Shown piece after piece: positions 45,746-53,096 of a stretch of DNA of 60,725 nt. How positions within the stretch are numbered: the stretch's first letter is position 1; each line of letters begins with the position of its first letter. The DNA is from Alphaproteobacteria bacterium (GTDB lineage Bacteria > Pseudomonadota > Alphaproteobacteria > RF32 > CAG-239). The stretch covers positions 1 through 60,725 of the forward strand of contig JAZQTW010000058.1 of assembly GCA_045630985.1 (NCBI GenBank), in the 5' to 3' direction. A program made the position numbers and the translations under genes. The notes below the pieces were generated by a model that searched no databases, had not been told where the DNA came from, and saw only the letters and a list, made by a program, of their open reading frames with translations.

Positions 45746-46732
45746 ATGAGCGATTCAACAGAAGGATTAGATTCTTTTATAAGTGACGCAGGTGATAATA
45801 ATGAAAAAATAGAAACATCTAATAAAGAAAACAATGATTCATTAATAGAAAATGAGTTTACAGATTTACTAAATAGCTTTGTTAATCAGAACCAACAAGA
45901 AACAAATAATGAACAAGAAGAAGAGGGGCTTGATAGCTTTGTTTCTACCGCATATCCCTCCTCAACACCAGATAAAAACAGTATCGATAGCTTGTTGACC
46001 GCTACTACAGTAAAAACAGTAACTGCAAGTGATGTGTCTGAAAAGGTGTTAAAATCAGAAGAGCAAGATTTAGCTCGATCAGTATCAAATTTTCAAGATG
46101 CGATATTTACTATGGCAGATAAAAAGAATTTTAAGGTTCCTGAAACAGATTATGATGAAGAAATGCTTTTTCCAAACTATAAACCTAGTATAGGAAAAAA
46201 AATAGCAACATATTTATTGTCGTGTTGGGATATTGTATGCAGATATGACCCTGAAAATATGAAAAGATTATCTAAAGATGCAAATGATGAAGAATATTTA
46301 ACTTTTGCAGAAGGGTTAAATGATACAGATTTGCAGTTAGCCATAATATCATATGTAGAGATCTTAATAAATATAGAAATGTGTGAGTTCTTGTATAAAC
46401 AACGATTGGAAGTTATACAAAAAAACAAGATAAAAAGAGAGTTGTATGAAGAATATATGGAGATACAAGAGAGAAAAGCTCAATTTATAAAAAAATTAAA
46501 AGAAAAAAAATTTCCTATAGATGTCGATAAACTGATAAATAATTATTTTAGAGCAGCACAAAATGATGCAACAGGTGCATTTGATGCATTAACAAAGAAT
46601 CCAGCAATGTTTGCCCCAATAGATTTTGATCAAATAAAACCCAAATTTTTTGGCTTGATAAAGGTAACTCCTGAAGATGGAATAAAGGCAAATCAAAAAA
46701 TTGGTGAATATATTAAAAAACTTAAAGTTTAG
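45746..46732 (+). CDS. hypothetical protein, acidic disordered N-terminus plus helical C-terminal domain
   Basis: 328 aa. AGGAG RBS. Internal repeat EGLDSF[IV]S at aa 6-13 and 60-67. No recognisable family motif. Confidence 0.6.
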   Translation: MSDSTEGLDSFISDAGDNNEKIETSNKENNDSLIENEFTDLLNSFVNQNQQETNNEQEEEGLDSFVSTAYPSSTPDKNSIDSLLTATTVKTVTASDVSEKVLKSEEQDLARSVSNFQDAIFTMADKKNFKVPETDYDEEMLFPNYKPSIGKKIATYLLSCWDIVCRYDPENMKRLSKDANDEEYLTFAEGLNDTDLQLAIISYVEILINIEMCEFLYKQRLEVIQKNKIKRELYEEYMEIQERKAQFIKKLKEKKFPIDVDKLINNYFRAAQNDATGAFDALTKNPAMFAPIDFDQIKPKFFGLIKVTPEDGIKANQKIGEYIKKLKV

Positions 46733-46745
46733 AGTATTTTTAAAG

Positions 46746-46774
46746 TAGACAACTTTGTGTTTTTGTGATACAAT
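46746..46774 (+). promoter_or_regulatory. candidate sigma-70 promoter with extended -10
   Basis: TAGACA (46746-46751), 17-nt spacer, TGaTACAAT (46766-46774). About 20 nt upstream of the AAGGAG RBS of the 46801 gene. An 8-bp inverted repeat CTTTGTGT/ACACAAAG brackets the -10. Confidence 0.45.
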
Positions 46775-46800
46775 GCAAAAAATACACAAAGGAGATGAAA

Positions 46801-50124: not shown

Positions 50125-50137
50125 TTAGAGGTGAAAA

Positions 50138-52357
50138 ATGGCAAAAGAAAGAGGAAAAGAATGGGAAGAATATGATAATGCAGTGCGTTGGATTACAATA
50201 ACATTCTTTATATCCATAGGTGTTAGTGTTGTTTTATTGTATTTAGCTCATCCTTTGGCTTATCTAATACAACAAGGAATTTCTAAAAAAAGTATAGATG
50301 TTGTAGGATTATATATCAAAAAGACTGTTTCAGACCCAGGAGTTTTGTACAGCCAATATGCAAGATGGTTTAAAAGAATATTTAAATTAACAGGAACAAC
50401 GAAGATTAGTTCTTGGATACCAATTTTACCATTTATATCTTTACCTATAATATTAATAACAGGTGCCATAAAATGTCCATATAAATTCCAATCAAACGTA
50501 CATGGTTCAGCTCATATTGCAACATTAAGAGATATTGAGCGTATGCCTTTGTTAGGTTTTGATGGATTTTGTATGGTTGTTGGGCGTTTTCAAGGCAAGA
50601 TGTTGAAACTAAAAGAAACATTGTCAACATTATGTTGTGCTCCTCCAGGTACAGGTAAAACAGCCGGAGTTGTTATTCCTACAATTTTTAACTCAGAAAC
50701 AATGAGTATTATTGTAAATGACCCTAAACCTGAGTTGTGCTACACTACAACAGGAGCTAGAAGTAAAGTTGGTCCAGTATTTGTTATTAACTGGGGTAAA
50801 GAGGATAATCCTCTAACGGGTGAATATTATCCTAGTTGGAACCCATTATCACCAGGAGCGTTACCTGCCCCTGGACCTGCGCGAGATTTGTATATTGACT
50901 CAATGTGTAATACTTTCGTAGAAGATCCTAAAGGTGGTGGCGATGCATATTGGTCTCAAGCTGGTAGAGGCGCATTGTGTGGTCTAATTCAATTTGTAGC
51001 TTCAAAATGTGAGAAAGCATTAGCTAATGAACGCTTTATTCAAAAAATTGTTGAAGGAACAATGACAGAAGAGGATAAAGCAGAGTTGATGAATTACTAT
51101 GAAGAAATGCAAAGTGGTAATTTACAGAATAATGCTATAAGAGCAATGCAAGATTTACAAAATAATAATTTGACCATAGAAAATTATTTACCAATTGGTA
51201 CATGGAATGCATTTCCAGATAGATGGGTTAACCATGAGGCTTGTTTAGCCATGATTCTAGAATGGATAACTACAGCAACAATTGAGCAAAGTAACGAAAT
51301 TAAGCGCCGTCAAGAAGAGGGTGACCAAATGGCTGCAATGGCCGATCTTATGGGAGAGTTACTAGATGGAGCCATCAATGAGGCTAATGATTATGGTTAT
51401 TCTCGTAGATGTATCCAAGAATTGAGTGGATTGAGATCAAAACCTGATAAAGAACGTGGTTCTGTAATGTCTATGGCATTTAATGGTATTCGTATTTTCA
51501 AAAACTCTGCTGTTGTATCAAGAACAAGTTTTTCAGATATTAAATTTAAGGATTTGCGTGGACTTAAAGACCCTGTTACAGGAGAATGGAAACCAATCGC
51601 CGTTTATCTGTCAGTTAACCAAACAGATGCCCAAGCATTGAACCCCATTAGTGCTGTTTTTGTTGACTTGATGAGTGCATATTTAATTTCAAACCCACCA
51701 AATTTTGTAAATGCAACAGATGGTAAGATGGGACCATTCCCAGTGTTATTCGTACTTGACGAGTTTCCGCAAATGCCAAAACTTAAAGCTGTAATTGATG
51801 GTCCTGCGGTGGGGCGTGGTCAAAAAGTATCATATCTATTGATAGGTCAAGATTTAGGACAAATTTCGGGTAAGTACGGTAAAGATGACCTTGAAACAGT
51901 TATTTCAACAACTGCATGTAAGGTAATTTTATCACAGAACAATGAGCAAACAGCAGAACGTTTCTCAAAAATGATTGGCCAAAAAACAATTCAAACAACA
52001 TCATATTCTAGACAAGAGGGGAGCTTAAATAAAGAGTTTAATCCTTTTGCAAAAAATGTAAGTTATCAATTAACAGGTGTAGCTGCAATTAAATCAAATG
52101 AATTACTAAGTTTACCAATGTTAAAACAAGTAGTGCTTATGCAAGGTCATATTGAAACACCAATTATGGCAGATGCTCCTCGTTATTATCTTGATAAAAA
52201 GATGTTGGCGCAATCAAAAATTCCACATTCGGCATGGGTGCCAGATTGGATTGTTGCTCAGAGAAATACCCAGAATGAAGATATTCTATCTAAATTAGGA
52301 ATCGATTATGATCCTAATGCTGAAGAGGAAACAGATTTTGAGGAAGACACAGAATAG
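50138..52357 (+). CDS. virD4: type IV secretion coupling protein, VirD4/TraG family
   Basis: 739 aa. Two N-terminal TM helices. HGSAHIATLRDIE (compare VirD4 HGSARWA), Walker A CCAPPGTGKTAGVVIPT, NDPKPEL, Walker B VLFVLDEFPQMPKL, LIGQDLGQI. Acidic tail [17 protein letters not shown]. Confidence 0.85.
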   Translation: MAKERGKEWEEYDNAVRWITITFFISIGVSVVLLYLAHPLAYLIQQGISKKSIDVVGLYIKKTVSDPGVLYSQYARWFKRIFKLTGTTKISSWIPILPFISLPIILITGAIKCPYKFQSNVHGSAHIATLRDIERMPLLGFDGFCMVVGRFQGKMLKLKETLSTLCCAPPGTGKTAGVVIPTIFNSETMSIIVNDPKPELCYTTTGARSKVGPVFVINWGKEDNPLTGEYYPSWNPLSPGALPAPGPARDLYIDSMCNTFVEDPKGGGDAYWSQAGRGALCGLIQFVASKCEKALANERFIQKIVEGTMTEEDKAELMNYYEEMQSGNLQNNAIRAMQDLQNNNLTIENYLPIGTWNAFPDRWVNHEACLAMILEWITTATIEQSNEIKRRQEEGDQMAAMADLMGELLDGAINEANDYGYSRRCIQELSGLRSKPDKERGSVMSMAFNGIRIFKNSAVVSRTSFSDIKFKDLRGLKDPVTGEWKPIAVYLSVNQTDAQALNPISAVFVDLMSAYLISNPPNFVNATDGKMGPFPVLFVLDEFPQMPKLKAVIDGPAVGRGQKVSYLLIGQDLGQISGKYGKDDLETVISTTACKVILSQNNEQTAERFSKMIGQKTIQTTSYSRQEGSLNKEFNPFAKNVSYQLTGVAAIKSNELLSLPMLKQVVLMQGHIETPIMADAPRYYLDKKMLAQSKIPHSAWVPDWIVAQRNTQNEDILSKLGIDYDPNAEEETDFEEDTE

Positions 52358-53096
52358 AAGTAAGAACACGGAATATAAAACATTTTCTTTGCTATCTGTT
52401 CTAAAAAGTAGCATAAAGTTTGCATATACCCATAAAAAAGTATTTTTATCATGGTGTTTTGCAAACTTTATTTTCTTATATGTATTAAGCTTAATACCAA
52501 ATGGTTGGAAGAATTCTTTAAGCATATTATGGTTAATGGGATACTATTTATTTCTATGCACATTTGTACGATTTATACAACAAAGACAGCCTTATTTTTC
52601 ATTAATCAGAATTTTTAATGGATTAATACCGGTTAGTAAAATTATGTTTATGAATATAAGCATATTCATACTAACCATAATATTTCAATATGTTCCAATG
52701 CTGATGGGTTTTCAGCATAAATATTTGGATTTCTTTGAGAAATATATGGGAATATTACAAAGCCATGAGGGGCTTCCTGAAAAAACACTGCTATATCTTT
52801 TTATGGTAACGATATCTCCATATACAATATGCAGACCATGTTTGGCATGGATATCATCACTTGTAGGTAAGAGTCGTTCAATAATGGATGCATACAAAAA
52901 AACAAAGGGCAATTACTGGAAATTCTTGCTTTGCTTTGTTTTTTTAAGCGCACTGTTCTTAATCACATATTATATTGATACTATATATGGATTAAAAACA
53001 AAGGTACTTATAATGTCTATATGGATTATCTATGCTAATATCGTTTTCATTAATCTATATAAGATATTTTATAAGAGAAAAACTAAGCAATCATAA
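52308..53096 (+). CDS. hypothetical multi-pass membrane protein
   Basis: 262 aa with 5-6 hydrophobic helices. ATG 52308 has AGGA 7 nt upstream and overlaps the T4CP gene by 50 nt. The start is uncertain (ATG 52317 and in-frame TTGs are also possible). Overlaps the ligA 3' end by 14 nt. Confidence 0.5.

Follow-up and report, generated by a model that had tools for sequence, protein, structure and literature searches.

The 60,725-nucleotide contig JAZQTW010000058.1 from the genome assembly of an alphaproteobacterium (GCA_045630985.1), referred to below as the window, carries six consecutive genes on the + strand, numbered g1 to g6, the fifth of which codes for a type IV coupling protein (T4CP). 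In type IV secretion and conjugation, T4CPs are regarded as the receptors for substrates, and they are almost always encoded together with the secretion machine or a relaxosome. The protein described here is a VirD4-family T4CP with a novel, lineage-specific set of partners, and it is chromosomally fixed in a large clade of gut bacteria. A preliminary description of this DNA had placed six open reading frames (ORFs) of the same strand between rluD and ligA, and this layout was recovered in full. The gene g1 lies at 45746..46732 (328 amino acids, aa) and g2 at 46801..48246 (481 aa); they are followed by g3 (48261..48749), which codes for a small membrane protein of 162 aa, g4 (48805..50124; 439 aa, TTG start), the T4CP gene g5 (50138..52357; 739 aa, VirD4/TraG family according to Pfam) and g6 (52308..53096), which codes for a 262-aa protein predicted to be a polytopic membrane protein. 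The module is bounded on the left by rluD (44676..45665, - strand; Pfam PseudoU_synth_2), beyond which lies a gene for an rpoH-type sigma factor (43683-44558; Pfam Sigma70 r2/r4), and on the right by a gene for an NAD-dependent DNA ligase, ligA (53083-55155, - strand; Pfam). The spacings from g2 to g6 were remeasured at the values reported before, namely 14, 55 and 13 nucleotides (nt) and then an overlap of 50 nt, and the gap between g1 and g2 is 68 nt.

AGGAG Shine-Dalgarno sites are present upstream of g1 and of the g2 ATG at 46801, the latter 6 nt upstream of this start codon. The promoter-like site described ahead of g2 (TAGACA-17-TACAAT with an upstream TG, i.e. TAGACA-17-TGaTACAAT; 46746..46774, + strand) was found by a sequence scan, but it cannot be taken as evidence of a promoter, because the region holds no more such sites than shuffled sequence (40 against 46.6 +/- 6.1 expected). 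A scan of the region for promoters and terminators returned nothing above shuffled sequences, and an Rfam search of the region gave no match. An 8-bp perfect inverted repeat, CTTTGTGT...ACACAAAG (46752-46791), overlaps the Shine-Dalgarno site of g2; as a hairpin it was rejected (z = -1.41 against shuffles).

The features on which g5 had been called a T4CP, the motifs HGSAHIA, APPGTGKTAGVVIPT and VLFVLDEFPQMPKL and two N-terminal transmembrane (TM) helices, are all present, the helices lying at residues 19-37 and 93-111 by hydropathy. The protein matches the Pfam family T4SS-DNA_transf (PF02534) with 193.3 bits (cutoff 20.1, E 9.5e-57) and TraG-D_C with 81.9 bits (cutoff 22), and TrwB_AAD_bind also matches. 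It remains below every NCBIfam equivalog cutoff, with 161 bits versus 250 for CD1115 and 130 versus 728 for PRK13897 VirD4. Searches of the Protein Data Bank (PDB) with the T4CP gave nothing significant, TrwB being the best match (E 0.22). The Walker A motif GTGKT is encoded at 50648-50662 and the Walker B motif VLFVLDEF at 51743-51766, both on the + strand; GTGKT and LDEF are invariant among 11 T4CP orthologues, for which the mean column identity is 80%. Judged by its sequence, g5 is a genuine VirD4/TraG-family T4CP with intact ATPase motifs. In the window's clade, where it was measured, the C-terminal tail of the protein is very acidic, with a mean net charge of -10 over the last 25 residues.

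Database relatives of this T4CP at 67-94% identity number more than 120, all of ~740 aa, and the few that carry a name come from 'Azospirillum sp. CAG:260', an 'Acetobacter sp.' metagenome-assembled genome and 'Alphaproteobacteria bacterium'. When one genome per species was scanned, a close relative was encoded in at least 594 genomes of uncultured gut Alphaproteobacteria, a group which we take to be the GTDB order RF32, and one T4CP orthologue is indexed in ~7,000 blocks of the assembly collection. Synteny and identity were then determined in 80 fetched species-level loci, identity being measured to the window proteins by tblastn. The order rpoH(-) rluD(-) / g1 g2 g3 g4 T4CP is kept in the loci with enough flanking sequence (rluD and rpoH in nearly all of these), the context on the rluD/rpoH side is identical in at least 67 loci, and the module genes are tightly packed throughout, with gaps of ~0-90 nt or overlaps. 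The T4CP was present in 80/80 loci with a median identity of 68% (65-94%), compared with 76% for rpoH (67/80 loci) and 61% for rluD (68/80). Among the partners, g4 was found in 80/80 loci (median identity 42%), g3 in 74/80 (30%) and g1 in 69/80 (43%); g2 was recognised by tblastn in 20/80 (25%, range 22-48%), and its slot is always filled by an ORF of 427-727 aa, even when no homology is detectable. Judged from these comparisons, g1-g5 are vertically inherited and the T4CP is under strong purifying selection, with a tighter constraint than rluD, a neighbouring housekeeping gene, and the block is thus not the edge of a conjugative element.

Co-conservation of g1-g4 with the T4CP, which the preliminary description had proposed as a test of its module, was borne out across these loci. 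The proposed unit of six genes was not, since a g6 homologue was found in only 31/80 loci, with unrelated genes elsewhere; likewise, the adjacency of the block to rluD holds in relatives, whereas that to ligA is clade-specific (26 loci). As g6 and the adjacency to ligA occur only in the clade of the window and in a few more, the conserved unit consists of the five genes g1-g5. The g6 product has five predicted TM helices, and its gene overlaps the 3' end of the T4CP gene by 50 nt; it is clade-specific and probably either accessory or unrelated to the module. In many far-clade loci, two soluble ORFs follow the T4CP in place of g6; in L001, the locus that was scanned, the second of them (L001:12817-13284) has a sub-threshold match to the immunity-protein-like SUKH/SMI1-KNR4 family (23 bits versus a cutoff of 27). 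On the other side of the module, a single-pass membrane protein of ~95 aa (Pfam DUF6476, E 7.6e-07) is encoded between rluD and g1 at L001:5227-5511 and in 44 other loci. It is present in most clades but missing from that of the window; the window has neither the gene nor a tblastn trace of it.

The window itself is ordinary chromosome. Its Pfam content includes RadA, RecN, GpmI, CtpA, AnmK, UDG, a Bat operon, a porin and ABC transporters, among others of this kind, inspection of the remaining ORFs gives the same picture, and its G+C content is 30%, the module (0.318) being close to its flanks (0.297 and 0.320). There is no tRNA gene in the 60-kb window, no VirB, relaxase or integrase Pfam family among the window ORFs scanned, and no ORF of VirB4 size. 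When VirB4, VirB8, VirB9, VirB10 and VirB11 of the nearest plasmid systems were searched by tblastn, no match was obtained in the window, with 45 kb of upstream and 8 kb of downstream sequence, or in 84 close loci. The earlier statement that the 60 kb contain no channel gene of a type IV secretion system (T4SS), relaxase, integrase or tRNA was upheld by these searches. At the level of the locus, no T4SS, relaxase or integrase gene is linked to the T4CP; as ~20-60 kb of sequence were read per genome, the term 'orphan' applies to the locus only. The concern, also raised in the preliminary description, that the block might simply be the edge of a standard conjugative element is contradicted by the fixed synteny, the flank-like G+C content and the lack of element genes.

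The five neighbours of the T4CP had been described as proteins without any assignable motif. This holds for g1, g2 and g6, which like g3 gave only chance-level matches to Pfam and NCBIfam, but not for g4, which appears to carry a divergent NERD domain, nor for g3, which is a paralogue of the g4 membrane domain. TM helices were predicted in g3, g4 and g6, as described before. The AlphaFold2 (AF2) model of g4, built with 65 sequences, has four N-terminal helices, a disordered stretch from residue 110 to 275 and an alpha/beta domain at residues 277-438. The membrane domain comprises residues 1-108, with TM helices at 4-22 and 66-84 by hydropathy. The linker contains the conserved motif HALFxFDDDDFDFDFD (residues 185-202; 49357-49410, + strand), and the C-terminal domain (residues 277-438; 49633-50118, + strand) is assigned as a divergent NERD or PD-(D/E)xK-like domain on the basis of the Pfam matches of orthologues and the AF2 model. 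The window protein has no match to Pfam NERD (PF08378) at E <= 1, so that its membership rests on its orthologues, 35/74 of which match NERD weakly (E <= 0.1). One of them, P0201, reaches 26.4 bits against a gathering score of 22.1, over profile positions 8-110 of 111.

In the model, the C-terminal domain of g4 is predicted with a local distance difference test score (pLDDT) of mostly 86-95 and shows three consecutive beta-strands followed by a helix. Its top Foldseek neighbours in the PDB (AF1548, R2 endonuclease, N.BspD6I, Bax1, EndoMS and Card1) are all nucleases of the restriction-endonuclease fold, although the matches are weak (E 0.03-0.1). The invariant residues of g4 include D316, K317, E318, G320, D321 and W322 through R348, and D301 is nearly invariant. 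A canonical D...(D/E)xK triad is lacking, as the corresponding D301...D316-K317-E318 has Glu at the Lys position, and catalysis by g4 is thus only putative; a comparable Glu substitution is found in the ExK site of BamHI. The likeness of g4 to NERD proteins (PF08378) lies in the mostly weak C-terminal profile matches of its orthologues and the weak structural matches to nucleases of the restriction-endonuclease fold; according to the Pfam description, other NERD proteins may likewise have TM helices at the N-terminus. Unlike in these proteins, the domain of g4 is joined to the membrane module that g3 also has, and it is coupled genetically to a T4CP; the window protein itself falls below significance. 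No report of a NERD domain combined with a coupling protein was found in the literature.

Over its first ~105 residues, which include a TM helix (residues 7-25), g3 is homologous to the g4 membrane domain (hhalign probability 99%, E 5e-18, 107 columns), and the soluble tail that follows is short (~55 aa). From this match of their membrane domains, g3 and g4 appear to be paralogous membrane partners. Acidic N-termini, disordered in the AF2 model of g1, had been noted in g1 and g2, and both were seen. Residues 1-100 of g1 are acidic, their net charge averaging -14, and predicted to be disordered, with a pLDDT below 50 over most of residues 1-98. The remainder (residues 101-328) is confidently predicted to form an all-helical domain, with a pLDDT above 90 over roughly residues 100-250; a Foldseek search with the g1 model gave no match in the PDB (best E 0.33) or in BFVD. 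Within the N-terminal part lie an invariant helix, DEFxxLLNxF, and copies of a motif, LDSF(L/I), the number of which varies among orthologues, from two in the window g1, of the form LDSF(I/V), to eight in the g1 of locus L010; LDxF is enriched in g1 (1.13 versus 0.08 expected). Six of the eight LD(S/x)F(L/I) motifs of the L010 orthologue (L010:4946-6235) are spaced at an exact period of 14 residues, and this periodic array suggests that the motif count differs between species through tandem repeat expansion. Besides its acidic N-terminus, g2 is mostly helical and very fast-evolving, with a mean column identity of 11% among positional orthologues. When profiles of g4, g3 and g1 were searched against the PDB sequences, all matches were of low complexity or due to chance, and no homologue of g1 or g4 was found by tblastn in 72,556 plasmids.

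Relatives of the T4CP itself are carried by 4587 plasmid records. The closest, on megaplasmids of Erythrobacter aureus and Microvirga, are 32-34% identical over roughly 80-90% of the length and terminate canonical virB4...virB8-virB9-virB10-virB11-virD4 operons, which points to a T4SS-coupled ancestry of the T4CP. They share with it the T4SS-DNA_transf, TraG-D_C and TrwB_AAD_bind matches, the two N-terminal TM helices and the Walker A and B motifs. In contrast to these plasmid VirD4 proteins, however, the window T4CP is chromosomal, core to its clade, without VirB linkage and preceded by four lineage-specific genes.

Further full-length T4CP relatives, at 33-54% identity, came from an exhaustive search of 50%-identity representatives. 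A metagenome scan seeded with the group at 33-40% identity yielded 63 gut loci with a G+C content of 38-59%, many of them on contigs of 100-670 kb. None of the 63 distant loci contained g1, g3 or g4 by hidden Markov model search, or a VirB gene within 10 kb by blastp against the ORFs. These distant relatives suggest that the unlinked chromosomal T4CP predates g1-g4 and that its partners differ by clade. The gene directly upstream of the T4CP in these loci codes for a pentapeptide-repeat protein (Pfam E 1e-37 to 1e-42) whose C-terminal tail is rich in Arg, for example ...IPRRSRVNRQRQRS (mean charge +5.2 and 5.1 Arg in the last 25 residues). This arrangement, with the T4CP directly downstream of the pentapeptide gene, is seen in L087-L149, e.g. 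at L090:8492-9952 and L125:8731-10002, and the pentapeptide gene is preceded by a gene for a 599-aa lipoprotein or for a ~370-aa secreted protein without a Pfam family. That the pentapeptide-repeat protein is a diverged g1, g3 or g4 was ruled out by hhalign and hmmsearch.

The distant T4CPs have features of their own. Those of L109-L149 (e.g. L125:9992-12322), as well as P0243, P0252 and P0257, carry the C-terminal motif D(D/E)WW(L/M)xE(D/E)xF...NPF, and some distant representatives of ~1000 aa have long acidic and aromatic tails with the same WWLDDxxF motif. A likeness of WW(L/M)xEExF to GDWLADEExF of g4 is loose, the g4 segment aligning inside the NERD profile, and was not relied on. In P0250, P0252, P0257 and P0258, which represent several distant chromosomal T4CP clades, Walker A is kept but Walker B has lost its glutamate (LDNF or LDD-); in some of these proteins ATPase activity may be altered or lost. 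A type IV prepilin peptidase (Peptidase_A24, E 6.7e-15) is encoded immediately after the T4CP at L094:12244-12957, and an ORF of the same size (237 aa) follows the T4CP in L091.

Elsewhere in the window, two paralogous proteins of ~300 aa are encoded on the - strand 30 kb apart (5587-6504 and 36346-37251); they are 55% identical over 260 residues, have hydrophobic N-terminal segments and belong to no Pfam family. A membrane-anchored staphylococcal-nuclease-like protein (SNase, 22 bits versus a cutoff of 21) is encoded at 11136-11954 (- strand), directly downstream of and on the same strand as the BatD-BatA-like VWA/TPR genes at 11958-16990.

We tentatively propose that g1-g5 encode a lineage-specific coupling complex that feeds a T4SS encoded elsewhere in the genome, a reading to which we give nearly an even chance of being correct. 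A complex at the inner membrane is suggested by the intact motor, the two membrane partners that share a module, the two acidic, motif-bearing soluble proteins and the acidic tail of the T4CP. In such a complex, the T4CP ATPase, presumably an inner-membrane hexamer, would assemble with two partners that share a homologous two-helix membrane domain. To this assembly g3 would contribute its membrane domain and short soluble tail, and g4 the acidic FDFDFD linker and a cytoplasmic NERD or PD-(D/E)xK-like domain, whereas g1 and g2 would act as adaptors or as cognate substrates that dock via acidic or basic tails. The complex would then select a macromolecular substrate and supply the energy that moves it through the inner membrane, most probably into the channel of the distant T4SS. 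That the proteins assemble physically, that some act as adaptors or substrates and that a distant T4SS exists are inferences. A T4SS elsewhere is favoured because of the ancestry of the T4CP, all precedent and the substrate-like basic tails of neighbouring proteins in distant relatives; substrates of VirB/D4 systems carry positively charged, Arg-rich C-terminal signals.

The nearest analogy may be with Legionella's type IV coupling complex (T4CC), that of the Dot/Icm system (DotL, DotM/N/Y/Z, IcmS/W and LvgA), from which the T4CC concept and the adjacency of DotL and DotM are taken and which would follow the same logic of a T4CP with dedicated auxiliary proteins (PMC12857230). In dotM-dotL as in g4-T4CP, the gene directly upstream of that for the T4CP codes for a partner with a TM anchor and a cytoplasmic domain, and acidic peptide motifs, which have a recognition role in Dot/Icm, are common to Dot/Icm and to the g1-T4CP module. 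Unlike DotL, the window T4CP has an acidic tail of only ~40 aa and no long adaptor-binding extension, is of VirD4 (type IVA) ancestry and has no Dot/Icm genes nearby.

Several observations weigh against a coupling complex of this kind. No T4SS component was found near the T4CP in 147 loci by VirB BLAST (84 close loci, within +/-10 kb, and 63 distant ones), and to our knowledge every characterised effector or conjugative system links its T4CP to some T4SS or relaxosome genes. The proteins g1-g4 were unlike DotM/N/Y/Z, IcmS/W, LvgA, CagF and relaxosome proteins in Pfam and PDB sequence searches and, for g1 and g4, in Foldseek searches; the comparison of the g1 and g4 models with the PDB, suggested in the preliminary description with DotM/N/Y/Z, IcmS/W and LvgA in mind, returned none of these. 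We also know of no nuclease-like protein that is a component of a T4CC. A literature search for RF32 or 'Azospirillum sp. CAG' together with T4SS, or for an orphan VirD4, brought up nothing relevant.

Alternatively, and with a distinctly lower probability, the module could be a T4SS-independent machine for DNA processing or translocation at the inner membrane, made up of a co-opted T4CP motor, the membrane-tethered, NERD nuclease-like g4 and its paralogue g3. It could serve DNA export, DNA uptake or chromosome handling, with the motor gated by acidic or DNA-mimicking partners, i.e. the g1 and g2 tails, the FDFDFD linker and the pentapeptide-repeat proteins of sister clades. T4CPs are FtsK/SpoIIIE-related motors, and the pentapeptide-repeat fold is a known DNA mimic. 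The lack of T4SS genes around the T4CP in the 147 loci (tblastn/VirB), whose T4CPs share roughly 30-94% of their residues with that of the window, speaks for this reading, as do conservation and synteny like those of a core housekeeping gene, the nuclease-family domain of the conserved membrane partner g4 and the pairing of the T4CP with pentapeptide-repeat proteins in sister clades. However, we know of no VirD4-family T4CP that acts without a T4SS, the absence of T4SS genes is established locally only, g4 lacks the canonical (D/E)xK lysine, which leaves its nuclease activity putative, and the Foldseek support is below significance (E 0.03-0.1). In its evolutionary form, namely the domestication, in an order-level gut clade, of a conjugative coupling ATPase that became a T4SS-independent housekeeping DNA machine with a NERD-like subunit, its paralogue and acidic or DNA-mimicking regulators, this account seems to us rather unlikely.

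A membrane-bound defence or exclusion system, with the T4CP-like ATPase and the NERD nuclease acting against incoming phage or conjugative DNA, is considerably more doubtful than a T4SS-independent DNA machine. It would fit the presence of a nuclease-family domain and an ATPase motor at the membrane, the rapid evolution and variable length of g2 and the SUKH-like immunity-type proteins among the downstream genes of some clades. Against it, the only match of the six proteins to PADLOC-DB was a sub-threshold one of the T4CP to mad8 (E 0.003), with no stretch that passed, and defence systems are typically patchy and located in variable islands, whereas this operon was found at a single, invariable chromosomal position in all loci examined, with an ATPase that exceeds rluD in conservation.

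Lastly, the block could be what is left of a decayed integrative conjugative or mobilisable element, or the edge of one, with the neighbouring genes as unrelated cargo. This reading would accord with the usual location of T4CPs on elements, the 4587 plasmid records with relatives and the fact that a T4CP can occur on mobilisable elements that lack a T4SS, but it is highly improbable and already contradicted by the synteny and conservation data: there is no relaxase, integrase, tRNA, repeat or G+C shift, the same rluD/rpoH insertion context recurs in at least 67 loci, the ATPase motifs are intact with 80% conservation over the alignment columns, and g1, g3 and g4, for which plasmids hold no homologues (tblastn with g1 and g4), vary together with the T4CP. 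Among such elements, those of the MOBC type (CloDF13 MobB/MobC) have their own T4CP and a relaxase of endonuclease fold and resemble the module in combining a T4CP without a T4SS with a restriction-endonuclease-fold protein. The module differs from them in being chromosomal, fixed in position and order-wide, in the membrane anchor of g4 and in that no oriT or relaxase family was detected.

The T4CP described here is unusual in that its gene evolves slowly and belongs to the chromosomal core of hundreds of prevalent, uncultured species of gut Alphaproteobacteria, with operon partners that are found nowhere else, including a membrane-anchored protein of a nuclease family. If the T4SS is encoded elsewhere in the genome, the module would represent a new type of coupling complex, distinct from that of Dot/Icm, and would imply an unrecognised transfer of effectors or DNA by common gut commensals. 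If no T4SS exists, coupling proteins would be exaptable for another transaction of DNA or protein at the membrane, and, as part of a T4SS-independent DNA machine, this would be the first known case of a VirD4-family protein that functions with no type IV secretion channel. Either reading gives names and testable partners to five families of 'hypothetical' proteins.

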